Source: a virus. From it: DNA of 12,658 nucleotides. Both the position numbers and the translations under genes were made by a program. The notes under the pieces are model-generated. The model did not search any database and was not told the origin of the DNA. It was given only the letters and a program-made list of their open reading frames with translations. Of this stretch, positions 1-12,658 are shown in pieces (the stretch's first letter is position 1; each line of letters starts with the position of its first letter). Location of the stretch: UHGV virus genome UHGV-1796775. One strand, given 5' to 3'.

Positions 1-50
1 ATCGATACTGGAAAAAACTCTAACTCGGTGGCCAGTTTTTGTTGACCACT

Positions 51-1457
51 TCAGTATGCATAGCGAACGGCTGAGAGAACGTCGTCGTTAAGCTTGACGA
101 TCTTCCCGTTTTCATCACGGTGATAGAGGCGGAACTCCTCAAAGAATGGCTCACAGGTGTTGAATACTTTGAAGCGACCATCGAGCATCATGTCGCGCAA
201 TTCAGTGATGCCAGGCTCAACAGCATTACCGCCATCAGGCCATGTCGCATGCTCCTGTAACATCATAAAACCAGCATCTGCATACTGCCCTTTGAGCTGC
301 TCACCGCCGCCCTTCTCGTGCTGGTTTCCGTCATGAGGCCATGCGGTTGGCACTTTATGCGCCCATGATTTAACAGCTCCCCACGCCTGAACGGCTGTTT
401 TTTCTTTCGCCTTCCACACGCGTGAAACGTAGATTGTGTCTGCGTCCTTATCCCACCAAAGCTGAACCTGCGCCTGTGGGTGATCCCATCCGAAATCCAT
501 CCCGCCAATTACGTAGAAGTGATCAGGACACTCGAACGGCTGACACTTAATCGTCTCTTCCGGTATCTGGAAGATTCGACCACTACCCATCGTAGGAATG
601 CCGCGAGCACGCGCCTCTCTCTCATGCTCGGGATAGGATGCGATGATTTGCTCTTTCTGCTCGTCGGTGTAGTGCTCTGCGTCATAGATGGTCATGTTGA
701 CCACTTTCTGCGACTTGCTGGGATTCTTCAGGAACTTGGTAACAACGTCAGACATCCCCATCAGCGGGGTAAACGTCAGAATTGAGAATTGCCCGTATTT
801 GTTGGTACGGGTAAGACCTTCGCCATAAATGCTGTATGGTGGCTCTTCGTCAAACCACACGCCGTGGATTGTGTCACCCTGCCAGCGAGCACGGCCTTGC
901 GAGTATGGCTTGAAGTAGCAGATTGAAATGCCATCTTCAACGCCATCAGCCGTGTGATGCTTAACCAGAAGATGATCAACAAGGTTCGGAAAGAAAGGAG
1001 ACTTCTTCCAGCTAATGATGTCTTCTTTCGGTATGGAACCGTAGCCAGGCTCATCATTCTCTTCGATACGACCGCACAGGATGCGTTGAGTCGTTTTGGT
1101 TACAGTCTCGTTTGTCTCGCCACCAATCCAGAAGACAACAGGCTCATAGAAACGCTTACCTTTCCACTCACCGCCATATTTACCATCAGCAGGATAGCCT
1201 TTTGTGCCCGGGTAACGCCCTGTAAGGTGAAACGCGACTTCAGCAGCACCAGTAAATGACTTACCAAGCTGGTTACCAGCCATAAAACATCGCTCTGGAT
1301 AGTCATGTCCGGCGTCGATGAACTCACGCTGTTTGCTGTATGGCGTAAATTCATATAGCAGGTGTGTGTTCCGGTAGTTCTCTTCTTCTTCGAGTAGCTC
1401 GAGCAATTCGATTTGCTCTTCGTCGCTCAGGTTATCAAGAATCGCGTCCAGTTCCAC
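51..1457 (-). CDS. terL: Terminase large subunit (P22/Sf6-like), 468 aa
   Basis: Long minus-strand ORF. GTG start at 1457, with AAGGAG about 10 nt upstream, overlaps the terS 3' end by 23 nt. Placement directly after terS fits a packaging module; family assignment is by recollection only. Stop at 51-53. Confidence 0.85.
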
Positions 1458-1923
1458 GGTTGAATAGCTCCTTGATACGAGAGCGTCGCTTATCGCGATC
1501 TCCCTTATCAGGTGTCACGTCTTCAACTTGCGACTGCTCTTTGAGGCCCAAATCACGGGCGATGATGTTAGCGTTGAGAAGGTCAGCGGCTGCGCCAGAG
1601 AATTTCTGGTCGTAGATGATGTCTTCCGCTCGTGATGTGACGTCAGAAAAACCTTCCATTGACCGGAAGGTTCCCCATGTTTGCCTGGTGATATCAAGGA
1701 AGGTACACAATCCTGAAATAGTCATGGCTCGCATCTTAGGGACATTAGCCTTAATTATTTCTCCCTGATATGAAAATACCTTACCCTCCCATAGCGGGTT
1801 ATCATCAGCCCACTCGAAGTATTCACAACAAGCAGCCCACAGCGCCTCAGGCGATTCGAATTTAGGATTTCGCCCATGACTACTGCGGGCCTCCCAAAAT
1901 CGGTTGCCCTTTGGTGCTGCCAT
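1435..1923 (-). CDS. terS: Terminase small subunit (P22 gp3-like), 162 aa
   Basis: ORF track 1435..1929; I prefer the ATG at 1923 ([17 protein letters not shown]...), which has better spacing from a GTGAG Shine-Dalgarno than the ATG at 1929. The N-terminal sequence is characteristic of P22-type small terminases from memory. Confidence 0.8.
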
Positions 1924-1958
1924 ATTCATCTCACTTATTTGTTATTTCAGGTTGAGCA

Positions 1959-2201
1959 TCATGCTCCGGTAGTGAACAGGTCTAACGCTTCCTTCGATTT
2001 ACGCACCGCTTCGATAGTTCGGGTCGTGATATCTGAATTAGCGCCGCCTGACTGGAAGTGAATTTTGAATAGCTCAAGCTTCAGCTCGTCAGTGCCAATG
2101 AACTGAAATGCCTCCTCTGCGGCTGCGTTCTGGTTCATGACCAGTTTGTAAATCTCTAACTGGAATTTCTGTTCTTCAGTCATGGGAATAATCTCTGCCA
2201 T
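1959..2201 (-). CDS. Hypothetical protein, 80 aa
   Basis: Minus-strand ORF with ATG at 2201 and an alternative ATG at 2183. No convincing RBS for the first ATG. It sits between the lysis and packaging modules; no recognisable motif. Confidence 0.5.
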   Translation of the reverse strand: MAEIIPMTEEQKFQLEIYKLVMNQNAAAEEAFQFIGTDELKLELFKIHFQSGGANSDITTRTIEAVRKSKEALDLFTTGA

Positions 2202-2304
2202 TGTTGGCTACATTTATCCGTTAAAAGGGATATCAGTTAAGTTATCCCGTGTAGGGTATAAGCCATTATCAAAGCCACTCTGTAGGGAATGGCTTTTGTA
2301 ATAA

Positions 2305-2685
2305 CTACTGTTCGCTTAGCTTCTGCTTCAGCAAGTAACCTTCTAGCATCCAGATTTTGTTTACAGCATTTTGCCGGGCAATCTTCCGACCAATTTCTGC
2401 ATCAAAATTTTCCGGACTTGCACAGGCACTCTCTCCGGTGACGGTGAAGCCATTCTTCAGCACCAGTACGCAGAAAGTGAGCAACTTCAATGGCGATAAA
2501 TCACGATCGCCTTCTTCTGGTTTTTCTCTGCCACAATATTCGTTGCTGGAAATGGCACCATTACGTCCATCATAAGCAGTAAAGTAATGCTCGCTTTTAA
2601 TCACGTCTTCGATGTGCTGCGGGGTGATTCGCGGTGCCGTTTTTCCTTTCTCAACGATTTCTTTTTCGATTTGCTGGTCGTTCAT
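2305..2685 (-). CDS. Hypothetical phage protein, 126 aa
   Basis: Minus-strand ORF with ATG at 2685 and an AGGGT Shine-Dalgarno about 8 nt upstream. Its stop codon is immediately followed by a conserved hairpin element. Function unknown. Confidence 0.6.
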   Translation of the reverse strand: MNDQQIEKEIVEKGKTAPRITPQHIEDVIKSEHYFTAYDGRNGAISSNEYCGREKPEEGDRDLSPLKLLTFCVLVLKNGFTVTGESACASPENFDAEIGRKIARQNAVNKIWMLEGYLLKQKLSEQ

Positions 2686-2911
2686 AATTATGACCCTGTG
2701 GAGTGGTTGCTTGATTAGGATGTCTTTCCATCAGTCCGCCACCACAAAGAATCTTTTTTGCCATAAGGCAGGAGGTTCATCTTTCAGTGGCTGCCAGTGT
2801 TATTTCCCCACTTACTGGCTTGGGTTGTTTCGTGGTACTGCCGTTAACTGGTTACCCAGAATAAATTCCGGTTTCATTATCAAGCCCACCCGTAGATAGG
2901 CTTTGTAATGG

Positions 2912-3199
2912 CTACTTCTTCAGAAATGATTCGATGAACTCACGCCGGGGATGACGATAGTTCAGAATATCTTCTGGCATCCTCATAAAGCGGTTGTTGC
3001 CGTCTTTGGCAGTAACAAAACAGCTGTGAACTCCGCAGACATCCGTTTTGATTGTGTCGCTATACTCAAAAAGCAACTGAGCCATCTTCTCTTGCCATTC
3101 TGGCGGCATAGCCTCCATGAATACTCGCGGCATCACGCAGAACGGCGCATGCGTAAGACCAAACCACAGTTGCAGGTCTTTACGATATTCTTCATCCAT
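2912..3199 (-). CDS. Hypothetical protein, 95 aa
   Basis: Minus-strand ORF with ATG at 3199 and an AAGGT Shine-Dalgarno about 7 nt upstream. It is preceded by an intrinsic-terminator-like hairpin and followed by a conserved hairpin element. No recognisable motif. Confidence 0.55.
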   Translation of the reverse strand: MDEEYRKDLQLWFGLTHAPFCVMPRVFMEAMPPEWQEKMAQLLFEYSDTIKTDVCGVHSCFVTAKDGNNRFMRMPEDILNYRHPRREFIESFLKK

Positions 3200-3217
3200 C
3201 GTCTTTACCTTTGTTGC

Positions 3218-3242
3218 AATAAAAATCCCCGCAAATGCGAGG
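3218..3242 (-). terminator. Intrinsic terminator-like hairpin downstream of Rz
   Basis: Minus-strand RNA CCUCGC-AUUU-GCGGGG followed by AUUUUUAUU: a 6-bp GC-rich stem, 4-nt loop and U-tract, lying 19 nt upstream of the 95-aa ORF start. Confidence 0.5.
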
Positions 3243-3417
3243 CTAAATCCTGGTATTTGTAATGACTGGCTCTTATCTCAACGCAGCCCCTTACCGCGCG
3301 CCAGATGCTCAATATCAAGCATCAGCAATGAGATGTTTAATCTGGATTCACTCCAGAAGTGATCACCACCCTGTCTACAGAGCCAGATGTGAAGGATGAT
3401 GAGTAAAATTATCGCTA

Positions 3418-3855
3418 TCATCGAAGGCATTGCGTCCTGATGTATTCCTGCAGGTAGTTAACCTGCGCGGTTATCCTGTCGATTCCACTTCGGAGACGGT
3501 AATAATTGAGTTCAGCATCTGCTGTAAGTCCTGGACTTTCTCCATCGCCCATGCCGCTGGCTCCGGTCGTTGACTTTGCACAGGTGGCGGCGACTTGCAG
3601 GCGCTTACGCCCAGCAGAAACATCAGCACGGAGACTTTCGATAGTCGCGTTAGCATCAGCAAGCTCCTTTGTATATCTGGCGTCGAGTTCTGCTACATCA
3701 CGTTGACGCTTCTGCATGTCAGCGATTGTGGATGTGGCCTTATCGCGCTGCTCTTTGTAGGCGATGGCGTTATCACGGTAATGATTAACCGCCCATGACA
3801 GACAGACGATGATGCAGATAACCAGAGCGGAGATAATCGCGGTGACTCTGCTCAT
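3418..3855 (-). CDS. Rz: Rz i-spanin (inner-membrane spanin subunit), 145 aa
   Basis: ATG at 3855 overlaps the R stop (ATGA). N-terminal TM segment [23 protein letters not shown] matches lambda Rz from memory; the rest is homologous but diverged. Rz1 is embedded in the +1 frame. Confidence 0.85.
3471..3656 (-). CDS. Rz1: Rz1 o-spanin (outer-membrane lipoprotein), 61 aa
   Basis: Embedded inside Rz in another frame. ATG at 3656 with AAGGAG 7 nt upstream (the ORF track's 3662 start is a TTG). Signal peptide with lipobox VSAC followed by a proline-rich stretch, as expected for Rz1. Confidence 0.75.
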
Positions 3856-4328
3856 ACCTCAATCTCTCTGACCGTTCCACCCGCTTCTTTGAATTTTGCA
3901 ATCAGGCTGTCAGCCTTATGCTCGAACTGACCATAACCAGCGCCAGGCAGTGAAGCCCAGATATTGCTGCAACGGTCGATAGCCTGACGAATATCACCGC
4001 GATCAATCATCGGCAAAGCGCCACGCTCCTTAATCTGCTGCAATGCAACAGCATCCTGGCTTTTAGGAGAGAAGTCTTTCAGGCCAAGCTGCTTACGATA
4101 GGCATCCCACCAACGGGAAAGAAGCTGGTAACGCCCGGCGGCTGTTGATTTGAGTTTTGGGTTTAGCGTGACAAGTTTGCGAGGGTGATCAGAGTAATCA
4201 GTGAATAGCTCTCCGCCTACAATGACGTCATAACCATGATTTCTGGTTTTCTGTCGTCCGTTATCAGTCCCCTCTGACCACGCCAGCATATCGAGGAACG
4301 CCTTACGTTGATTATTGATTTCCACCAT
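3852..4328 (-). CDS. R: Endolysin R (lambda-type lytic transglycosylase), 158 aa
   Basis: Translation [39 protein letters not shown]... matches lambda R from memory nearly residue for residue. Start overlaps the S 3' end. Confidence 0.93.
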
Positions 4329-4635
4329 CTTCTACTCCGGCTTTTTTAGCAGCGAAGCGTTTGATAAGCGAACCAATCGAGTCAGTACCGATGTAGCCGA
4401 TGAACACGCTCGTTATATAAGCGAGATTGCTACTTAGTCCGGCGAAGTCGAGAAGATCACGAATGAACCAGGCGATAATGGCGCACATCGTTGCGTCGAT
4501 TACTGTTTTTGTAAACGCACCGCCATTATATCTGCCGCGAAGGTACGCCATTGCAAACGCAAGGATTGCCCCGATGCCTTGTTCCTTTGCCGCAAGAATG
4601 GCGGCTAACAGGTCATGTTTTTCTGGCATCTTCAT
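4312..4635 (-). CDS. S: Holin S (class I; dual-start holin/antiholin), 107 aa
   Basis: Translation [39 protein letters not shown]... is essentially lambda S. The Met1-Lys2-Met3 dual start (ATG at 4635 and 4629) gives S107 antiholin and S105 holin. Confidence 0.93.
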
Positions 4636-5041
4636 GTCTTACCCCCAATAAGGGGATTTGCTCTATTTAATTAGGAATAAGGTCGATTACTGATCGAACA
4701 AATCCAGGCTACTGTGTTTAGTAATCAGATTTGTTCGTGACCGATATGCACGGGCAAAACGGCAGGAGGTTGTTAGCGCAGCCTCTTGCCATCCGCTTTC
4801 ACGAAGGTCATGTGTAGAAGGCCGCAGCGTAACTATTACTAATGAATTCAGAACAGACAGTGGCTACGGCTCAGTTTGGGTTGTGCTGTTGCTGGGCGGC
4901 GATGACGCCTGTACGCATTTGGTGATCCGGTTCTGCTTCCGGTATTCGCTTAATTCAGCACAACGGAAAGAGCACTGGCTAACCAGGCTCGCCGACTCTT
5001 CACGATTATCGACTCAATGCTCTTACCTGTTGTGCAGATAT

Positions 5042-5098
5042 AAAAAATCCCGAAACCGTTATGCAGGCTCTAACTATTACCTGCGAACTGTTTCGGGA
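5042..5098 (-). terminator. tR' late terminator
   Basis: Long hairpin with arms at 5048-5056 and 5090-5098 (UCCCGAAAC / GUUUCGGGA) followed on the minus-strand RNA by a U6 tract (plus-strand A-run 5042-5047). Confidence 0.7.
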
Positions 5099-5233
5099 TT
5101 GCATTTTGCAGACCTCTCTGCCTGCGATGGTTGGAGTTCCAGACGATACGTCGAAGTGACCAACTAGGCGGAATCGGTAGTAAGCGCCGCCTCTTTTCAT
5201 CTCACTACCACAACGAGCGAATTAACCCATCGT
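5042..5233 (-). ncRNA. Lambda-type 6S late leader RNA (pR' transcript terminated at tR')
   Basis: Minus-strand sequence from ACGATGGGTTAATTCGCTCG... to ...GCATAACGGTTTCGGGATTTTTTAT matches the lambda pR'-tR' transcript as I remember it. End coordinates are approximate. Confidence 0.7.
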
Positions 5234-5240
5234 TGAGTCA

Positions 5241-5269
5241 AATTTACCCAATTTTATTCAATAAGTCAA
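5241..5269 (-). promoter_or_regulatory. Late promoter pR' with overlapping Q-utilisation (qut) region
   Basis: On the minus strand, TTGACT (-35, plus 5264-5269), a 17-bp spacer, then TAAATT (-10, plus 5241-5246). The arrangement matches lambda pR' from memory; it lies just downstream of Q. Confidence 0.7.
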
Positions 5270-5311
5270 TATCATGCCGTTAATATGTTGCCATCCGTGG
5301 CAATCATGCTG

Positions 5312-5935
5312 CTAACGTGTGACCGCATTCAAAATGTTGTCTGCGATTGACTCTTCTTTGTGGCATTGCACCACCAGAGCGTCATACAGCGGCTTAACAG
5401 TGCGTGACCAGGTGGGTTGGGTAAGGTTTGGGATTAGCATCGTCACAGCGCGATATGCTGCGCTTGCTGGCATCCTTGAATAGCCGACGCCTTTGCATCT
5501 TCCGCACTCTTTCTCGACAACTCTCCCCCACAGCTCTGTTTTGGCAATATCAACCGCACGGCCTGTACCGTGGCAATCTCTGCATCTTGCCCCCGGCGTC
5601 GCGGCACTACGGCAATAATCCGCATAAGCGAATGTTGCGAGCACTTGCAGTACCTTTGCCTTAGTATTTCCTTCAAGCTTTGCCACACCACGGTATTTCC
5701 CCGATACCTTGTGTGCAAATTGCATCAGATAGTTGATAGCCTTTTGTTTGTCGTTCTGGCTGAGTTCGTGCTTACCGCAGAATGCAGCCATACCGAATCC
5801 GGCTTGTGATTGCGCCATCCCCATAGCAGCCATCACATCAGTACCGGAAAGAGAGTCAGAAGCCGTGGCCCGTGGTGAGTCGCTCATCATCGGGCTTTTT
5901 GGCGAATGAAATTTAGCTACGCTTTCGAGTCTCAT
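5312..5935 (-). CDS. Q: Late-gene antiterminator Q (lambda-type), 207 aa
   Basis: Translation [27 protein letters not shown]...[12 protein letters not shown]...CGRCKGVGY is lambda Q with its zinc-binding Cys cluster. ATG at 5935 overlaps the NinI stop (ATGA). Confidence 0.93.
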
Positions 5936-6597
5936 GCGCCTTCTCCCTGTACCTGAATCAATGTGAGGTTTCCGCAGAACACTGCGCCGGTATCGATATA
6001 CATCTGGTTGGCAAACTTGAGTGGTTTCACTGCTGGCGTATGACCAAAGATGAACGTGTCCGCGCCTTTGATTTCTTTCACGATCCCGTCTTGTGAGTTG
6101 CTGATTCGTTCGCGGTTCCAGATTACCTGCTGATGATCAACTGGCTTTCCAAACTCGTATTCGTCACAAGGATAATCGGCGTGGCAGATGACATATTTTT
6201 TTCCTTTACTCACCAGTTCGATGATTAACGGAAGTTCATCTGCTTTATGGGCAAGAGCTTTAGCCAGAATTTCTTTGTCGTAATCGAGATTAAAGAACCA
6301 GCCACCGCCATTAAGCAGCCAGTGATTGACGTTTCCACGCTCTGATAAGCCATCAATCATCATTTGCTCATGGTTTCCACGTACAGCTCTGAACCAGGGG
6401 AATGTGATTAATTCCAGACATTCGACGTTCTCTGTACCGCGATCAACCAAATCGCCCACCGAGATAAGCAGGTCTTTTTTGGTGTCGAATCCTATCGTCT
6501 CCAGTTTTTTCATCAGGTTCGTGTAGCATCCGTGCAGATCGCCAACTACCCAAATATTTCGGTATTTGCTGCCATCAATTTTTTCGTAATAGCGCAT
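5932..6597 (-). CDS. ninI: NinI serine/threonine protein phosphatase (lambda PPase-like), 221 aa
   Basis: Metallophosphatase motifs GDLHG, GDLVDRG and GNHE. I place the start at the internal ATG (6597, MRYYEKIDG...), as in lambda PPase; the ORF-track N-terminal extension overlaps NinH and is probably not translated. Confidence 0.88.
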
Positions 6598-6781
6598 CTC
6601 TTTCACTCCATCCGCGATGAACCATGAGAACGTCGTTGACGATGGCGTGCATTTTCCCGTCTTTATCATCAACGTATTTTCTGACCGTACCGCGACTACA
6701 TTTCAGTCTGCGTGCTACTTCTGTCTGGTTTCCGTATGCTTCAACGAGCATGTCTGGAATGGTTTTTACTGAGAACGTCAT
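6575..6781 (-). CDS. ninH: NinH (small Fis-like HTH protein), 68 aa
   Basis: 68-aa ORF with ATG at 6781 overlapping the NinG stop (ATGA). Sequence and size match lambda NinH from memory. Confidence 0.8.
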
Positions 6782-7389
6782 GCGGCCTCACTTCTGCTAT
6801 TTCGCAGGTCTTTGAGTTTCTGCTGATACTCCGCCTTGATGGCCCTGCACTCTTCGACAGTCCAGCGATGGCGGTTATGGTTTGATTCGATTTCGTCTAC
6901 TGCTTCCTGCCCGATGCGATTAATCAGTTCGACGCGATACGGAACGAGATTTCCGCTTTTGTGCTGGTTGCACACCACGCATTGCTTGTGAATATTGCGT
7001 TCATCAAATCGGAGTTGAGGTGCCGCAGCAGTTGTCCGGTAATGTCCGGCATCCCACTGAGCAGACGTGAGCGTTCCGCACGAGATACATGGTAAGTCGC
7101 GGTCTCTTTCTCTGATGAAGGCGTTTACGGCTTGTTGGGCTTGTTTAATCCAGTAACTGCGGGGCTTTAAGGCGAGTTTTCGAATCTTAAGTTTATCTTT
7201 CTGTCTCTGATCCTCTCGTCGTCGTTTCTTCTCTGCTGCTTTTTCCGCTTTTTCGCGTTCTTTACTTCGTCGTTCGAGTGCTATCTTGGTTCCACACTCT
7301 GGAGAGCACCACCACTGATTAGCGAATGCAGGGTGAAACCATTCCCGACATTCATCGTTTTTACATCGTCTTCGCGCTGGTTTAGCCAT
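6778..7389 (-). CDS. ninG: NinG / Rap recombination-associated endonuclease, 203 aa
   Basis: Cys-rich N- and C-terminal clusters ([23 protein letters not shown]) separated by a basic stretch, typical of NinG/Rap. ATG at 7389. Confidence 0.85.
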
Positions 7390-7552
7390 CGTCTTCTTCC
7401 TCGTACATTGAGCTATTCGGATCGCTCATCAGTTCTGCGCAGCAGTGCTCACACACGTGAACTTCCAGCACATGCAGCTTCTGGCCGCAGTTAGCGCACG
7501 TTAAAGCCCGCTCGACGCTTCCTTGTTCGTAACTTCGATTTTGGTCAATCAC
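7382..7552 (-). CDS. ninF: NinF-like small zinc-finger protein, 56 aa
   Basis: Not in the ORF track. Hand translation from a GTG at 7552 (GTGA overlap with the NinE stop; GAGGA upstream) gives [56 protein letters not shown]. Its stop overlaps the NinG start. Confidence 0.6.
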
Positions 7553-7731
7553 CTTGTTTTCCTCGCACGTTCTCTAAGCCACCGGATATCCCACAGGTGA
7601 GCCGTGTAGTTGAAGGTTTTTACGTCAGATTCTTTTGGGATTGGCTTGCGTTTATTTCTGGAGCGTTTCGTTGGAAGGTATTTGCAGTTTTCACAGATTA
7701 TGTCGGTGATGCTTCGTCGCTGTCGTCTCAT
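7549..7731 (-). CDS. ninE: NinE, 60 aa
   Basis: Internal ATG at 7731 ([23 protein letters not shown]...) overlaps the methyltransferase stop (ATGA). The ORF-track 90-aa version is an upstream extension into that gene. Confidence 0.75.
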
Positions 7732-8255
7732 GCCGCCCTCCTGACGCCCTGCCCGATCGCCATCAATGCCGCTTTGGATACGGTAGTAAACATCCGTCGA
7801 GGACTGATGAACGGTCGCCAAATCAGCAGCATGGAGCCTTTGCTGTTTCCCTTCTTCTCCAGCCCTGTCGATGGTTCGATAAAATTAATCCGTCCATCAG
7901 TGATAATACGAACTTCGTCAACACTCTCCAGAGCCTTGCTGAACCATCCGACAGACATATCCTCTGGCACAAGCATCACTACCGTCTGTCGTTGTTGTAT
8001 GCACTGCTCAGCGGCTTTTTCCACCCACGGCCTGATATTGCTGTACGGTGGGTTATTCCAGATTGCACCGTGGCTTATCCACTCAGAATTTAGCGCGTCG
8101 TCGGCCTCAGTTAGCCAGTGAGCGCACAGAGCATTTTTGTCGCTCGCTGCCGAATCCAGCCAGAATCCAAACTCAATATCCAGTGCATCAAAAAGCCAAA
8201 GCGGCGTTTGCCAGCAGTCCTTGTCGTGTGCTGGCGTATTTGATTTGATAGTCAT
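7728..8255 (-). CDS. Phage Dam-type DNA N6-adenine methyltransferase, 175 aa
   Basis: Catalytic NPPY motif ([10 protein letters not shown]) and the typical N-terminal [13 protein letters not shown] block of the phage Dam family. Preferred start is the ATG at 8255 (ATGA overlap with the NinB stop, GGAAGG Shine-Dalgarno); an alternative ATG at 8282 would add 9 residues. Confidence 0.8.
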
Positions 8256-8698
8256 GCAGCCTTCCCTTTTCGTTGTGACCATTCATACTCTCGCCGGGAG
8301 TCATCACTCCACCGCACGTTGCGCTCTGAGCCGAACCAGAACATGATTTCGATAAGCTCAGTCATGCTGGCCTTTCGCATTTTGCTGGTACGCACTCCAA
8401 GCATAACAACGCCACCGTCGATACCAGGCGCACTTCGTTGCTCCAGTTTTTTGGTCTTAAGCCACAGAGCAGTGAACAGATCTTTCCAGTCCTCCGGCGC
8501 AAGTCTCTGTCCATGCCAAAGCACCTGACGCGAAACATCGTTCAGCATCGGCCACATACGGTCATTCTGCGCTTTGCTCCGCTTGGGTTCTTTAATGTGG
8601 ACTTCGTGAGGTGACTTGTCGTCGATGGGAAGTGAGAGTATTGCGTCTATGGCGTTGTTTCTGATTGCTTCGTTGCGAAGCATGTATATTTGCTTCAT
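8252..8698 (-). CDS. ninB: NinB (Orf-family recombination mediator), 148 aa
   Basis: Homologous to lambda NinB from memory (e.g. LNDVSRQVLWHG, RNVRWSDD). ATG at 8698 with GAGGT upstream. Confidence 0.85.
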   Translation of the reverse strand: MKQIYMLRNEAIRNNAIDAILSLPIDDKSPHEVHIKEPKRSKAQNDRMWPMLNDVSRQVLWHGQRLAPEDWKDLFTALWLKTKKLEQRSAPGIDGGVVMLGVRTSKMRKASMTELIEIMFWFGSERNVRWSDDSRREYEWSQRKGKAA

Positions 8699-8720
8699 CG
8701 TTACCTCGACTTAATTCTGC

Positions 8721-9047
8721 TCATTGATACCCTCTCTCACTTAATCGCCTCCACGCTTCGTTAAACTCCTCTCTGGTTGCGCCGGATTTTCTTTCTTCAA
8801 ACATCATGCATTCGCTGATGTCTCCCCATGACTTTGGTCGCTTTTCAGCGAACAGATCATCCCATTCGAATACCCAGCGGCCTGATTTTCGGTAGTGGTA
8901 AATGGTCAGCCATGTTGTGCTGTTCGCTGGATACCCATAGAGAACTTCGACTTTTTGATCACGGTCTTTATGCTTTTTCAGCAGGATAAAGCCAGCAACC
9001 AGTGAAGCTCCGGCAAGAATGATGATTGGAATTTGCCAGTCAGCCAC
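8721..9047 (-). CDS. Hypothetical membrane-anchored protein, 108 aa
   Basis: GTG start at 9047 with a strong GGAGGG Shine-Dalgarno 4 nt upstream. One N-terminal TM helix (IPIIILAGASLVAGFILL) followed by a basic stretch and a charged, Trp-rich soluble domain. No family recognised. Confidence 0.55.
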   Translation of the reverse strand: MADWQIPIIILAGASLVAGFILLKKHKDRDQKVEVLYGYPANSTTWLTIYHYRKSGRWVFEWDDLFAEKRPKSWGDISECMMFEERKSGATREEFNEAWRRLSERGYQ

Positions 9048-9059
9048 ACTTCCCTCCGC

Positions 9060-9266
9060 TTAACTCACAAAACTCCACGCCATTTTTGCTACGACAACAG
9101 GCATAACACCGATAATCACCCACAGGAGAATGCTACCGAAAAGCACACCCACCATGTCTTTACCTTCGCCTACCAACCGGACAAAACTGCTGGCAACCAC
9201 AATGAACGTCGCCACCATCCACATAGCACCGAGAATCCTCAATGCAGAGAAAATTAACTCAACCAC
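9060..9266 (-). CDS. Hypothetical small integral membrane protein, 68 aa (two predicted TM helices)
   Basis: GTG start at 9266 with GGGGGAGAG upstream. Two hydrophobic segments separated by a GEGKD turn. Its stop abuts the RBS of the next ORF. No family recognised. Confidence 0.5.
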   Translation of the reverse strand: MVELIFSALRILGAMWMVATFIVVASSFVRLVGEGKDMVGVLFGSILLWVIIGVMPVVVAKMAWSFVS

Positions 9267-9280
9267 GATTTACTCTCCCC

Positions 9281-9313
9281 CAAATAAAAAGGCCTGCGAT
9301 TACCAGCAGGCCT
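9281..9313 (-). terminator. Intrinsic terminator downstream of the helicase gene (tR2-like position)
   Basis: Perfect 8-bp GC-rich inverted repeat AGGCCTGC / GCAGGCCT (plus 9290-9297 and 9306-9313) with an 8-nt loop, followed on the minus-strand RNA by UUUUUAUUU. Confidence 0.7.
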
Positions 9314-9341
9314 GCTATCAGCTCAGTGATGTAGATGGTCA

Positions 9342-10778
9342 TCAGAATCCTCCTTTCTTCTTGGACTGCGGTTCCTCGCGTTCACGGCGGCGCATTTCAG
9401 CAGACTGTTGGTCTGTGTCATAAATAGCGCCATTTGCCTGAATGCAATACACCGTGCCGGTATTGCCATGACGATTGAGACGAAGGATTAGTTCAGTTTC
9501 ACCAGGTGGAACACTGTCATCAAAAGCGCCTTCACGATGGATCCCCACCCAATAATCGCAATCCTGTTCAATCTGCCCTGTATCTCGTGAGTCACTTGGT
9601 AATGGGCGTTTATTGGTTCGGCTTTCCAGTGCGCGGTTAAGCTGCGTCAGAAGCACAACAACGCAATCAAGCTCTTTGGCAAGGTTCTTCAGTCCTTTGG
9701 TGATCATGCCGTAGGCAAGGTCGTTGCGATCGGCCTTCTCAGCGGTCATTAGTGTCAGGTAATCGACCAGAATCATGCCAACACATCCTTTTTCTCGCTT
9801 GATTCGACGGCTTTCGCTGACGATTTGAGCCAGAGATAATCCCGGCGTGTCGTCGATGTAAAGCAGGTCGATTTCACTCAAGCGATTGGCTGTTTCGATC
9901 GCCCTGTTGAAGTCACCATCGTAATCACCCTGATAGCCGTCATCAGCGTCATTTGTCGCCGGAAGGTAAAAAATATTCGGGTTAACACCTGACTTCTGTC
10001 CTACCAGTTTTTCCAGTATCTGGTCACCGGGCATTTCAAGGCTGAACATCAGAGCAGGCTTTTTCTCATGCACTGCGCAGTTGATTGCCATCTGGCTGTA
10101 TAGTGTCGTTTTCCCCATCTTAGGGCGAGCGCCAATGACAAACAGAGAGCCTTTCACCAGACCTTTCGGTGACAGCATCCTGTCCAGCGATGGGATCCCT
10201 GTGCTCATTCCTCGCTGTTCGCCTGACGGGTCAAATCGCTTCTCAAGGTCGCTAACCCAGTCTTCCATGACCTCACCAAATGAGCGAAGGCCGCGACGCG
10301 ATCCGGTTTTTGCATGGTCTGTCAGTTGCGTGAAAATCGCCTGAATAGCTTCGTACTTCTGCGTTGCAGTCATTCCGTTGCGGGAATAGAGCAATTCCGT
10401 CGCTTCAGTCATGCGGTTGATGGCGTAGCGTTCCATTGCGGTTTCACGAACCTGCATTGCATAGGCAACGATGTTTGCGGCGCTTGGCGTGTTCTTTGCG
10501 ATCTCAGCGATATAAGCAAAACCGCCAACAGACGCCGTTAACGATTTACGCTCCAGTTCATCGAAAAGCGTCAGGCCATCTACTGGCTTTTGCTCCCGGT
10601 GCATTCTGGTTATTTCTTCGAAAAGGATTTTGTGTGGTCGGCTGTAAAATGAATCAGGCTTCAGCATCGCCAGAACTTTCTGGACGCGCTCACTGCTGTC
10701 ATCATCCAGAAGCAATCCACCAATCACCGCCTGCTCTGCCTCGATGCTATGGGGCGGCGCATAAAAATTATCGGTCAT
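9342..10778 (-). CDS. DnaB-family replicative DNA helicase, 478 aa
   Basis: Walker A GARPKMGKTT and conserved DnaB C-terminal domain blocks (LVDYLTLM, TGQIEQDCDY). ATG at 10778 with GAGGGTGA upstream (the ORF-track start at 10793 is a GTG). Overlaps the initiator gene end by 11 nt. Confidence 0.9.
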   Translation of the reverse strand: MTDNFYAPPHSIEAEQAVIGGLLLDDDSSERVQKVLAMLKPDSFYSRPHKILFEEITRMHREQKPVDGLTLFDELERKSLTASVGGFAYIAEIAKNTPSAANIVAYAMQVRETAMERYAINRMTEATELLYSRNGMTATQKYEAIQAIFTQLTDHAKTGSRRGLRSFGEVMEDWVSDLEKRFDPSGEQRGMSTGIPSLDRMLSPKGLVKGSLFVIGARPKMGKTTLYSQMAINCAVHEKKPALMFSLEMPGDQILEKLVGQKSGVNPNIFYLPATNDADDGYQGDYDGDFNRAIETANRLSEIDLLYIDDTPGLSLAQIVSESRRIKREKGCVGMILVDYLTLMTAEKADRNDLAYGMITKGLKNLAKELDCVVVLLTQLNRALESRTNKRPLPSDSRDTGQIEQDCDYWVGIHREGAFDDSVPPGETELILRLNRHGNTGTVYCIQANGAIYDTDQQSAEMRRREREEPQSKKKGGF

Positions 10779-11667
10779 CGTGTTCACCCTCACGAACTTT
10801 CAGGTAGGTATTGTCGTTAAGCAGGAAATCAAATCCCTTTTTGTGCCAGACAGTTCCGCGTTGATGGTTTGGACGCTCTTCGAACATCCATCGGCAATTT
10901 TCGCCTACGTAGCTCAAATAATTTCTCCAGTCCTGCATCGTGAACCCATGCCCGTCAAGCTGGCGGGTTATCACTCCGGCTTTGCGCCAGAACGTTCGGA
11001 TCTGGTTTTTACGCTTGTCATTCAGTGCGCGGATTCTTGGCGCTTCAGGAAGGATTTCGTGGTAAGCATCGACAACATCCTGACAGCTGACGGAAGGTTT
11101 TTTCTTGTCAGACTTTTTGTCTGCTGTGGCACTCTCTAATACGTCAGTATTAGAGATAATATTATTATATTCTTTATCTGTGGTAATTTGCTGGTAATCT
11201 GCTGGTACAGCATTGCTTACAGGCATTGGTATTGCTGGCTTTGAGGTGGTAATTTGCTGGTAATCTGCTGGTACAAAATTTGACTGATAATCGTCATATT
11301 TCTCTACCGAGAAAACTGAGAATTTACCGTGTGAAACCCAGTCAATCATGCCGAGTTTTTTGAACTTTCTAAGCAGGTACTGAACGCGATCTGGTTTGAG
11401 TCCTGTTTCAAACGCCAGAGAGTTTCTACCGCCAAGTAGCTTCCCTCTGCCTACCAGAATTTCTCCTGCGTCAGTCATTACATACTCAGGCGTATGCTTT
11501 GCTTTGAGGATTAAGTGAACCCACAGATGCGCAGCTTCTGCGTCCTTGTAAAACGGCACATCCATAATTTTACGGTGCAGCAAGGCATACCCCTTACCGC
11601 TGCTTTGATGCGGTTGTTGTAGCCTTCTGGCCTCTCTGGCTTCGGCTAGATTAGATATGTTACTCAT
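10768..11667 (-). CDS. Replication initiator (lambda O-like / P22 gp18-like), 299 aa, containing the origin
   Basis: ATG at 11667 with AAGGAG upstream. Iteron repeats and an AT-rich tract lie inside the coding sequence, giving the repeated peptide [10 protein letters not shown]. Followed directly by the helicase gene, as in lambdoid replication modules. Confidence 0.85.
11134..11178. promoter_or_regulatory. Origin AT-rich unwinding region with a 22-bp perfect palindrome
   Basis: CTCTAATAC-GTCA-GTATTAGAG (11134-11155; 9-bp perfect arms) followed by AT-rich ATAATATTATTATATTCTTTATC, immediately adjacent to the iterons. Confidence 0.6.
11180..11275. repeat. Origin iterons (ori) inside the initiator gene
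   Basis: Two exact 28-bp copies of GGTAATTTGCTGGTAATCTGCTGGTACA at 11182-11209 and 11248-11275, each made of two ~12-bp units GGTAAT(T/C)TGCTG. A degenerate unit sits between them (GGTATTGCTGG, about 11229-11239). Confidence 0.8.
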
Positions 11668-11806
11668 GACCTTTCTCCTTCTGCATCAGCTTCACCTTTT
11701 CCAACTCAGCCCGGAATCGACCAGGCTGCTTGAAGCTGGACAGGAAGCGATCACGTAGTATGTGTTTGTGAATTTTGTCCTGGTAAGGACTGAGTTGTTT
11801 TGTCAT
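11660..11806 (-). CDS. Small hypothetical protein, 48 aa, between cII and the initiator
   Basis: Not in the ORF track. ATG at 11806 with AGGAG 5 nt upstream; translation [48 protein letters not shown]. Its TAA stop overlaps the initiator ATG. The start context GGAGTCATTATGACAAA is the one I recall for lambda O. Confidence 0.5.
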
Positions 11807-11818
11807 AATGACTCCTGT

Positions 11819-11895
11819 GGATTGATCCAGTAATGACCTCAGAACTCCATCTGGATTTGATCAGAACGCTCGGTTGCCGCCGGGCGTTTTTTATT
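11819..11895 (+). ncRNA. oop: oop antisense RNA (lambda-type), overlapping the cII 3' end
   Basis: Plus-strand GATTGATCCAGTAATGACCTCAGAACTCCATCTGGATTTGATCAGAACGCTCGGTTGCCGCCGGGCGTTTTTTATT matches lambda oop from memory. Terminator hairpin CGCTCGG/CCGGGCG at 11867-11886 plus a T6 tract; CATAAT -10 at 11804-11809. The 5' end is approximate. Confidence 0.7.
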
Positions 11896-12132
11896 GGTGA
11901 GAATCGAAGCAACTTGTCGTGCCAATCGAGCCATATCGTCGTCAACGACGCCCCATTCAAGAACAGCAAGCAGCATTGAGAACTTTGGAATCCAGTCCCT
12001 CTTCCACCTGCTGATCTGCGACTTATCAACTCCCACAGCTTCCGCTGTCTTCTCAGTTCCAAGCATTGCGATTTTGTTAAGCAACGCACTCTCGATTCGT
12101 AGAGCCTCGTTGCGTTTGTTTGCACGAACCAT
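11839..12132 (-). CDS. cII: Transcriptional activator CII (lambda-type), 97 aa
   Basis: Internal ATG at 12132 gives [66 protein letters not shown]..., lambda CII nearly residue for residue. The ORF-track N-terminal extension runs into nutR and is not translated. Confidence 0.93.
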
Positions 12133-12201
12133 ATGTAAGTATTTCCTTAGATAACAATTGATTGAATGTATGCAAATAAATGCATACACCATAGGTGTGG
12201 T

Positions 12202-12232
12202 TTAATTTGATGCCCTTTTTCAGGGCTGGGAT
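12202..12232 (-). promoter_or_regulatory. nutR N-utilisation site (boxA + boxB)
   Basis: On the minus strand, boxA-like GCTCTTAC (plus 12224-12232) and boxB hairpin GCCCTGAAAAAGGGC (plus 12202-12216), between cro and cII exactly as in lambda. This implies an N antiterminator encoded outside the window. Confidence 0.75.
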
Positions 12233-12251
12233 GTGTAAGAGCTGGAATGTC

Positions 12252-12467
12252 TTAAGCGGCTTTGTGTTCCGGCGGGAACACGTCATCAAGACTGACTTTT
12301 GCGCCTAACTTGTTTAGGCACTCAACAAGAGCACGGCATGTTTTAAGGTCTGGGAAGCGACGACCAGATTCCCAATGTCCGATAGCTCCCTGTGTGCATC
12401 CAACTGCCTTAGCAAGTGTTGTTTGAGAGATATTCAGTGACTCTCGATATTTTCGTAGGTTGCTCAT
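12252..12467 (-). CDS. cro: Cro-like HTH repressor (XRE family), 71 aa
   Basis: ATG at 12467 with GGAGGG 3 nt upstream gives MSNLRKYRESLNISQTTLAKAVGCTQGAIGHWESGRR..., a helix-turn-helix protein. Not lambda Cro. The ORF-track upstream extension covers the operator region. Confidence 0.8.
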   Translation of the reverse strand: MSNLRKYRESLNISQTTLAKAVGCTQGAIGHWESGRRFPDLKTCRALVECLNKLGAKVSLDDVFPPEHKAA

Positions 12468-12493
12468 ATGCCCTCCATAGTAACCATGAAACA

Positions 12494-12522
12494 ATAATAC
12501 GATATGTACTTTTAGAATGCAA
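12494..12522 (-). promoter_or_regulatory. Candidate PR promoter for cro
   Basis: On the minus strand, TTGCAT (-35, plus 12517-12522), a 17-bp spacer, then TATTAT (-10, plus 12494-12499), about 25 nt upstream of the cro ATG. Lies in the AT-rich divergent intergenic region 12468-12578. Confidence 0.5.
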
Positions 12523-12578
12523 ACAAAAAATACATCTTGTGCATGGATGGTTTTAGTACAGAGCGTAATAATAAGGGT

Positions 12579-12658
12579 ATGAAAATGAAATGGTATGAAC
12601 TGGCTAGATCCAGAATGAAAGAGCTCGGCATAACTCAAGAGAAGTTAGCCGAAGAGCT
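12579..12658 (+). CDS. CI-like repressor, N-terminal fragment (truncated by the window edge)
   Basis: ATG at 12579 gives MKMKWYELARSRMKELGITQEKLAEEL, the start of an HTH (XRE-type) domain, divergent from cro. Only 26 codons are visible. Confidence 0.6.
   Translation, partial: MKMKWYELARSRMKELGITQEKLAEE

Follow-up and report, generated by a model that had tools for sequence, protein, structure and literature searches.

A probable three-operator right operator region of the VT2-Sakai (Sp5) immunity type between the divergent cro and cI genes of a P22-like phage

Which sequences between the divergent cro and cI genes of a lambdoid phage are read by its two repressors, and to which immunity type do they belong? 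We considered these questions for a stretch of 12,658 nucleotides of the virus genome UHGV-1796775, analysed as a whole and referred to here as the window. A sequence-only reading had placed a lambdoid immunity region with divergent promoters near the end of the window, and had proposed that two direct repeats act as the operators of what may be an uncharacterised immunity specificity. Both promoters, PR and PRM, can indeed be placed there. The region is very probably a right operator (OR) with three dyad sites, part of a lambdoid CI/Cro switch that belongs to the VT2-Sakai (Sp5) immunity type. That immunity type is already known: its operators were predicted about 25 years ago and are annotated in public records. 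The feature is thus an ordinary, very common and already annotated one.

The cro-cI intergenic region, read from the sequence, spans positions 12468–12578 (111 bp) and has divergent genes on both sides. It is AT-rich, as had been proposed, with a GC fraction of about 0.30–0.33 versus about 0.50 within cro. The cro gene (12252–12467, minus strand) codes for a lytic repressor of 71 amino acids belonging to the XRE-type HTH_3 family (Pfam, E 1.4e-12) and is labelled cro in both AP000422 and ON470594. Its Shine-Dalgarno sequence, GGAGGG (12471–12476, minus strand), is located 3 nt 5' of the ATG and is invariant in all 28 haplotypes of the region that we compared. On the plus strand, the 5' end of cI (12579–12658) is cut by the window end and comprises the first 26 codons, with in-frame ATG codons at 12579 and 12585; in an identical locus, L003, the complete gene has 218 codons. 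A repressor gene and a cro gene that diverge from a gap of about 100 bp are a mark of a lambdoid OR, and the gap of 111 bp agrees with this.

The 419 bases around the region match Escherichia phage vB_EcoP-683R2 (ON470594) with 100% identity and are 94.6% identical to VT2-Sakai, Stx1-converting phage, Stx2 II, 2851, Nil2 and many Stx2a phages of the PA series. Over VT2-Sakai and dozens of other Stx phages, the identity to the region is 91.8–94.6%, and the phages at about 92–95% also include 1717 and YYZ-2008. The region was found in 776 of 5426 complete E. coli genomes (about 14%), and a search of IMG/VR with Cro gave 210 loci, the best 80 of which have a Cro that is 99–100% identical. The window itself is a mosaic: identity of about 99–100% to vB_EcoP-683R2 is confined to 11797–12658, and the parts for replication, nin, lysis and terminase, all within 1–11796, have their nearest matches in the P22-like phages IME10 and Sf6 and in HK630. 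An assignment of the whole window to vB_EcoP-683R2 was therefore rejected.

The complete CI of L003 contains an HTH_3 domain (E 8e-11) and a Peptidase_S24 domain (E 9e-29), giving it the N-terminal helix-turn-helix and the C-terminal LexA-like S24 domain that go with a lambdoid OR. Cro is 35% identical to the N-terminal domain of CI and has the recognition helix in common with it, TQGGIGHW in CI and TQGAIGHW in Cro; such near-identity fits two proteins reading the same sites. Compared with the PDB, Cro has its best matches among the classic repressors to P22 C2 (E 6e-3) and the 434 repressor (E 0.1), both marginal, and the N-terminal domain of CI matches that of the lambda repressor (1lli) with an E-value of 3.6e-3 only. 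The solved structure nearest to Cro is PDB entry 28tn, a 'lambda repressor-like protein' of 82 amino acids, which matches Cro residues 1–69 (E 2.4e-16); this Cro family thus has a structural template. Residues 82–216 of CI (L003 3589–3996) are nearly identical to the C-terminal domain of lambda CI (PDB 3bdn and 8gmu). Judged by these matches, CI is a mosaic at the level of domains, in which a lambda-like C-terminal domain is joined to a different, HTH_3-type N-terminal domain. The likeness of the C-terminal domain implies lambda-like oligomerisation and RecA-dependent cleavage. According to PMC10742460, it had already been noticed by Fattah et al.

Three dyads are present in the intergenic region. 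OR1, TAATACGATATGTACTT (12495–12511, centre 12503), has the core ATACGATATGTAC (12497–12509), reading ATAC-GATAT-GTAC, and is the sole perfect match to RTAC-N5-GTAY in the window; it is located between the -35 and -10 hexamers of PR, overlapping the latter by 3 bp. OR2, AAATACATCTTGTGCAT (12528–12544, centre 12536), has the core ATACATCTTGTGC (12530–12542), reading ATAC-ATCTT-GTGC; its right half, GTGC, contains the one mismatch to the motif. It adjoins the PRM -35 hexamer, and its centre is near position -43 relative to the start predicted for PRM. OR3, TAGTACAGAGCGTAATA (12554–12570, centre 12562), has the core GTACAGAGCGTAA (12556–12568), reading GTAC-AGAGC-GTAA, likewise has one mismatch, and overlaps the PRM -10 hexamer. 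The centres are thus 33 bp (OR1 to OR2) and 26 bp (OR2 to OR3) apart, and, with the promoters as predicted, the operators overlap core elements of both PR and PRM, as in a lambdoid OR. The inverted motifs TGTACT (12505–12510) and AGTACA (12555–12560) had been placed exactly in the sequence-only reading, and they correspond to operator half-sites, TGTACT to the right one of OR1 and AGTACA to the left one of OR3. A hairpin formed by these two motifs was rejected: a stem of 6 bp would have to close a loop of 44 nt, and each arm is accounted for as an operator half-site. Neither the stretch between OR1 and OR2 (12510–12529), considered for a fourth operator, nor the conserved cro leader (GGTTACTATGG), considered for a half-site, provides a dyad partner.

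In AP000422, three 17-bp 'putative operators' are annotated that correspond to window positions 12496–12512, 12528–12544 and 12554–12570, and AP005153 has the same operators, as well as PR and PRM, at matching positions. The annotation in these two records also includes three OL operators at PL. The predicted OR1–3 and OL1–3 are cited in PMC4587872, and the operators were used as oligonucleotides in PMC10742460, where the 17-mers of supplementary Table S1 are these same sites; both papers cite Fattah et al. 2000 (Genes Genet Syst 75:223) on the VT2-Sakai immunity region. The annotated Sakai operators are likewise reused in PMC9803871. Binding data turned up for heterologous lambda CI alone, at micromolar concentrations (PMC10742460), and they are uninformative on the cognate CI and Cro. 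The searchable literature yielded no footprinting, EMSA or reporter results for the cognate proteins, and a full-text search with the operator 17-mers gave nothing relevant; PMC5977221 does not cover this repressor.

The same kind of site recurs at the left operator of this phage type, outside the window. In L003, OL1 (AAGTACAAATCGTACTA, 4136–4152, centre 4144), OL2 (TAGAACATTTTGTATTG, 4111–4127, centre 4119) and OL3 (AAATACAAAGCGTTATA, 4078–4094, centre 4086) accompany a PL that reads TTGACT-17-TACTAT. Counted from the first operator, the OL centres are spaced by 25 and then 33 bp, versus 33 and then 26 bp in OR. Related dyad operators in OR that are repeated at OL, here three plus three, are again what a lambdoid switch has. 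Together, the six sites give the consensus WARTACA-N3-YGTAYT, with the core RTAC-N5-GTAY. All seven matches to this core motif in L003, at most one mismatch being allowed, lie in OR or OL, and the only perfect ones are OR1 and OL1, each in the spacer of a lytic promoter.

Every 4+4 dyad with a spacer of 0–10 was enumerated over OR plus OL. TACA-N3-TGTA ranks first, with five non-overlapping sites, a number reached in 59 of 3000 shuffles (about 2%). Non-overlapping sites were counted because a count that allows overlaps is a weak null, inflated by T-runs and reaching at least five in about 15% of shuffles. Across the whole window, RTAC-N5-GTAY with at most one mismatch is not above chance (12 matches, versus 8.0 ± 2.9 expected), and with the total so near expectation an overall motif excess was dropped as an argument. 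Only the clustering and the conservation of the matches are informative: five of the 12 fall within 12497–12580, and, if the other 7 matches in 12.5 kb are taken as the background, at least three in 111 bp have a Poisson probability of 4e-5. Three further one-mismatch matches are found in 160 bp at 5556–5716, within an open reading frame of 207 amino acids (5312–5935, minus strand); this trio is probably due to chance.

The conservation of the dyads was assessed in 28 distinct OR haplotypes, obtained from 82 sequences. Of the 24 half-site positions only 1 varies, compared with 4 of 15 spacer positions and 26 of 72 positions elsewhere between the two genes (Fisher p = 0.0016). The one substitution in a half-site, 12556 G>A in OR3, turns GTAC into ATAC and so retains RTAC. 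The half-sites of OR1 are invariant and its spacer varies at 12501 alone; those of OR2 are invariant too, with variation at spacer bases 12535 and 12536 (AAGAT versus AATGT in the cro orientation). There are two main classes of haplotype, the window type and the Sakai type, which diverge strongly between the operators and in the central spacer bases; all half-sites are identical between the two classes, with the OR1 spacer having C or T. The OL sites follow the same pattern when the window type is compared with Sakai. By analogy with 434-like operators, this is the pattern expected if the outer bases are contacted and the centre is not.

The PR candidate of the sequence-only reading, TTGCAT-17-TATTAT, is sound. 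On the minus strand, its -35 hexamer TTGCAT is at 12522–12517 and its -10 hexamer TATTAT, 17 bp away, at 12499–12494, with a predicted start near 12487. Sakai-type haplotypes have TTGTAT and TATTTT instead; the 12495 T>A variant in the -10 hexamer retains the TA...T pattern. A simple consensus scan returned the same promoter in a register shifted by one base (TTTGCA-18-TATTAT), and it is labelled 'putative major rightward promoter' in AP000422.

The direct repeats proposed as operators, two copies of TAGTA-N7-10-AATAATA bound in one orientation, one at the PR -10 hexamer and one at the cI start, also exist, each starting one base before the position given for it (12478 and 12554, not 12479 and 12555). 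They span 12478–12499 and 12554–12573, with TAGTA at 12478–12482 and 12554–12558 and AATAATA at 12493–12499 and 12567–12573. An exact bipartite repeat of this build (a 5-mer, a gap of 7–10 and a 7-mer) arises in just 25 of 5000 mononucleotide shuffles, so its presence is more than a simple effect of AT-richness; moreover, the second copy overlaps OR3 and the AATAATA of the first overlaps the edge of OR1. However, when conservation among phages sharing the repressor was checked, both copies turned out to be broken: eight Sakai-type haplotypes read AAAAATA in the first (12495 T>A) and CAGTA in the second (12554 T>C), and their Cro is 99–100% identical and the HTH of their CI identical. The gaps of the two copies are unequal (10 versus 8 bp), and the TAGTA of the first is downstream of the start predicted for PR, within the cro leader. 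The OL of the same phage lacks TAGTA-N7-10-AATAATA but has the three RTAC-N5-GTAY dyads, and the conserved OR2 would be left unexplained. Dimers of HTH_3 proteins, as in 434 and P22, normally read dyads. That the direct repeats are the operators is thus very hard to credit. The AATAATA copies are best read as -10 boxes, TATTAT of PR on the minus strand and AATAAT of PRM on the plus strand, each adjoining an operator half-site. A repeat search with 6-nt seeds returned neither the TAGTA...AATAATA repeat nor the operators; apart from an 11-nt direct repeat at the cI start (see below), it gave only a 9-nt inverted pair with arms 120 nt apart, which was treated as chance.

A reading nearer to the three-dyad one would keep only OR1 and OR3 as true operators, together with OL1 and OL2, and have OR2 not bound on its own and conserved as an UP-element or as -35 context. 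The GTGC right half of OR2 agrees with this, and so do its distance of 33 bp from OR1, farther than in lambda, and the site at the same position in the Vibrio phage H20 (described below), which has one good half only (TTAC-ATAAT-GGCG). Yet both half-sites of OR2 are invariant in the 28 haplotypes and two of its central bases vary, the same signature as at OR1 and OR3. Its centre at -43 from PRM coincides with the position from which CI activates in lambda, and AP000422 annotates it as an operator. We regard a role for OR2 other than that of an operator as improbable, and retain three dyads as the preferred reading of OR.

For cI, the predicted PRM consists of a weak -35 hexamer, TGGATG (12544–12549, plus strand, 3 of 6 consensus matches), and, 17 bp away, the -10 hexamer AATAAT (12567–12572, plus strand, 5 of 6 matches), which is invariant in the 28 haplotypes. 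The -35 hexamer falls within the 'putative maintenance promoter for cI' of AP000422, equivalent to window positions 12544–12572. The -10 hexamer puts the predicted transcription start on the first cI ATG, whose A is at 12579. This ATG is kept in all haplotypes and in H20, where AATAAT is likewise located 7 nt 5' of the ATG and no Shine-Dalgarno sequence precedes it. A leaderless cI mRNA made from PRM, which the sequence-only reading had also suggested, is on these grounds plausible. There is also a Shine-Dalgarno-like AAGGG at 12573–12577, spaced correctly for the second ATG, at 12585. The records differ in the start that they assign to cI: MKW..., at 12585, in AP000422 and ON470594; MKMKW..., equivalent to 12579, in H20; and an open reading frame extended upstream in AP005153. 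An 11-nt direct repeat across the cI start, AAGGGTATGAA (12573–12583) and AATGGTATGAA (12589–12599), 16 nt apart, is absent in H20 and is probably due to chance.

A second route to cI expression is suggested by a box for cII binding in the establishment promoter (PRE), read from the sequence as TTGCGTTTGTTTGC (12110–12123, plus strand), located inside the 5' end of cII and of the form TTGC-N6-TTGC, the cII consensus of lambda. A CII binding site and a promoter are annotated at the matching place in AP000422. Transcription from PRE would run through cro in antisense and into cI, and such a cII-dependent transcript could use the AAGGG run and the ATG at 12585. The cII gene is itself of lambda type (11839–12132, minus strand), and the reverse complement of 12212–12226, GCCCTGAAAAAGGGC, presumably corresponds to the boxB of lambda nutR, which it matches. 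With a lambda-type cII, the PRE box and the boxB match, lambda-like sequence flanks an immunity core that is itself not of lambda type.

The assignment to the VT2-Sakai type follows from both the proteins and the operators. Cro is 99–100% identical in VT2-Sakai (Sp5), and CI is 97% identical, with residues 1–44, which include the HTH, identical. All 24 OR half-site bases are the same as in the window and in the same positions (compared in locus L001), and PR, PRM and the OL triplet are the same as well. The two thus have the same DNA-binding domains in Cro and CI and the same half-sites, and the specificity suspected to be uncharacterised turns out to be one whose putative operators are annotated in AP000422 and AP005153. 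The differences are few substitutions in operator spacers (C or T in OR1, AAGAT or AATGT in OR2), many between the operators, and the PR hexamers, TTGCAT/TATTAT in the window versus TTGTAT/TATTTT in Sakai. In addition, the window phage has a P22-like (IME10/Sf6-like) genome without stx, and its cI is followed directly by OL, whereas Sakai has two extra open reading frames there.

With lambda, the locus has in common the divergent cI and cro genes, three operators over PR and PRM, an OR2 at about -42/-43 of PRM and a probably leaderless cI, in addition to the lambda-type cII, PRE box and nut boxB and the nearly identical C-terminal domain of CI. It differs in the N-terminal domain of CI, which is here an unrelated HTH_3 domain, in a Cro that is an all-helical HTH_3 protein and does not have the lambda Cro fold, and in its operator, RTAC-N5-GTAY as opposed to the TATCACCGC-type of lambda. 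The likeness to 434 and P22 is of another kind: repressor and Cro are paralogous HTH_3 proteins with a common recognition helix, and the operators have contacted half-sites of 4 bp around a variable spacer that is not contacted. The sequence similarity to these proteins is marginal, however, and both the half-site sequence and the spacer length are other than those of 434, where the operator is ACAA-N6-TTGT. Neither the DNA-binding domains nor the operator consensus, therefore, are those of the lambda, 434 or P22 specificities, in agreement with the sequence-only reading.

A sensitive DNA search extended the comparison to a group of Vibrio anguillarum phages that includes H20 (L085, 1419–1588 and 2723–2760). 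They have 76–77% nucleotide identity to the window from OR3 to the 5' end of cI, a stretch that includes the ATGAAAATGAAATGG start; a weaker likeness in the same stretch was seen in Pseudomonas phage phiPSA1. H20 has the same gene layout, with an AATAAT -10 hexamer directly before the MKMKW start. In its OR there are perfect TTAC-N5-GTAA dyads at the positions of OR1 and OR3, the counterpart of OR3 being TTACACTGAGTAA, and a half-matching site at that of OR2, with a spacing of 32 and 26 bp. In its OL, two sites with a spacing of 25 bp are located downstream of the repressor operon; one matches perfectly, the other has one mismatch. The half-site of H20 is TTAC rather than RTAC, its CI is 44% identical, and the C-terminal domain of its CI is not lambda-like. 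Since the sites and their spacing recur with a repressor only 44% identical, the operator architecture is conserved well beyond E. coli phages.

The positions of the three operators suggest how the switch may work. We infer that CI and Cro bind the OR sites as dimers; the order of affinities, like the activation step and the leaderless initiation, is put forward in the same conditional sense. OR1 is located in the spacer of PR and overlaps its -10 hexamer, so its occupancy would exclude RNA polymerase from PR, and CI bound there would maintain lysogeny. CI at OR2 would activate PRM, as happens in lambda, where CI activates PRM from a comparable position, about -42/-43. OR3 overlaps the PRM -10 hexamer, and cI would be switched off when Cro, or CI in excess, occupies this site.

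The operators of lambda OR are spaced by 24 and 23 bp from centre to centre. The 33 and 26 bp found here differ both from this and from the spacing in the phage's own OL, and therefore lambda-style cooperativity between OR1 and OR2 cannot be assumed. An unusual spacing of OR and OL that is kept even in a Vibrio phage, here joined to a lambda-like C-terminal domain of CI, raises the possibility, tentative and rather unlikely as it stands, that cooperative pairing differs from that in lambda. OR2 with OR3, and OL1 with OL2, would then be the close pairs, and OR1 would depend on its intrinsic affinity or on looping between OL and OR. If this were true, such rewired pairing would alter the stability of the lysogen and the threshold for induction in many Stx phages of this type. 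The correct operator positions matter for the design of reporters and repressor assays and for immunity typing, and the immunity type itself governs induction, and hence the release of Shiga toxin, in Sp5/VT2-Sakai and many other Stx phages.
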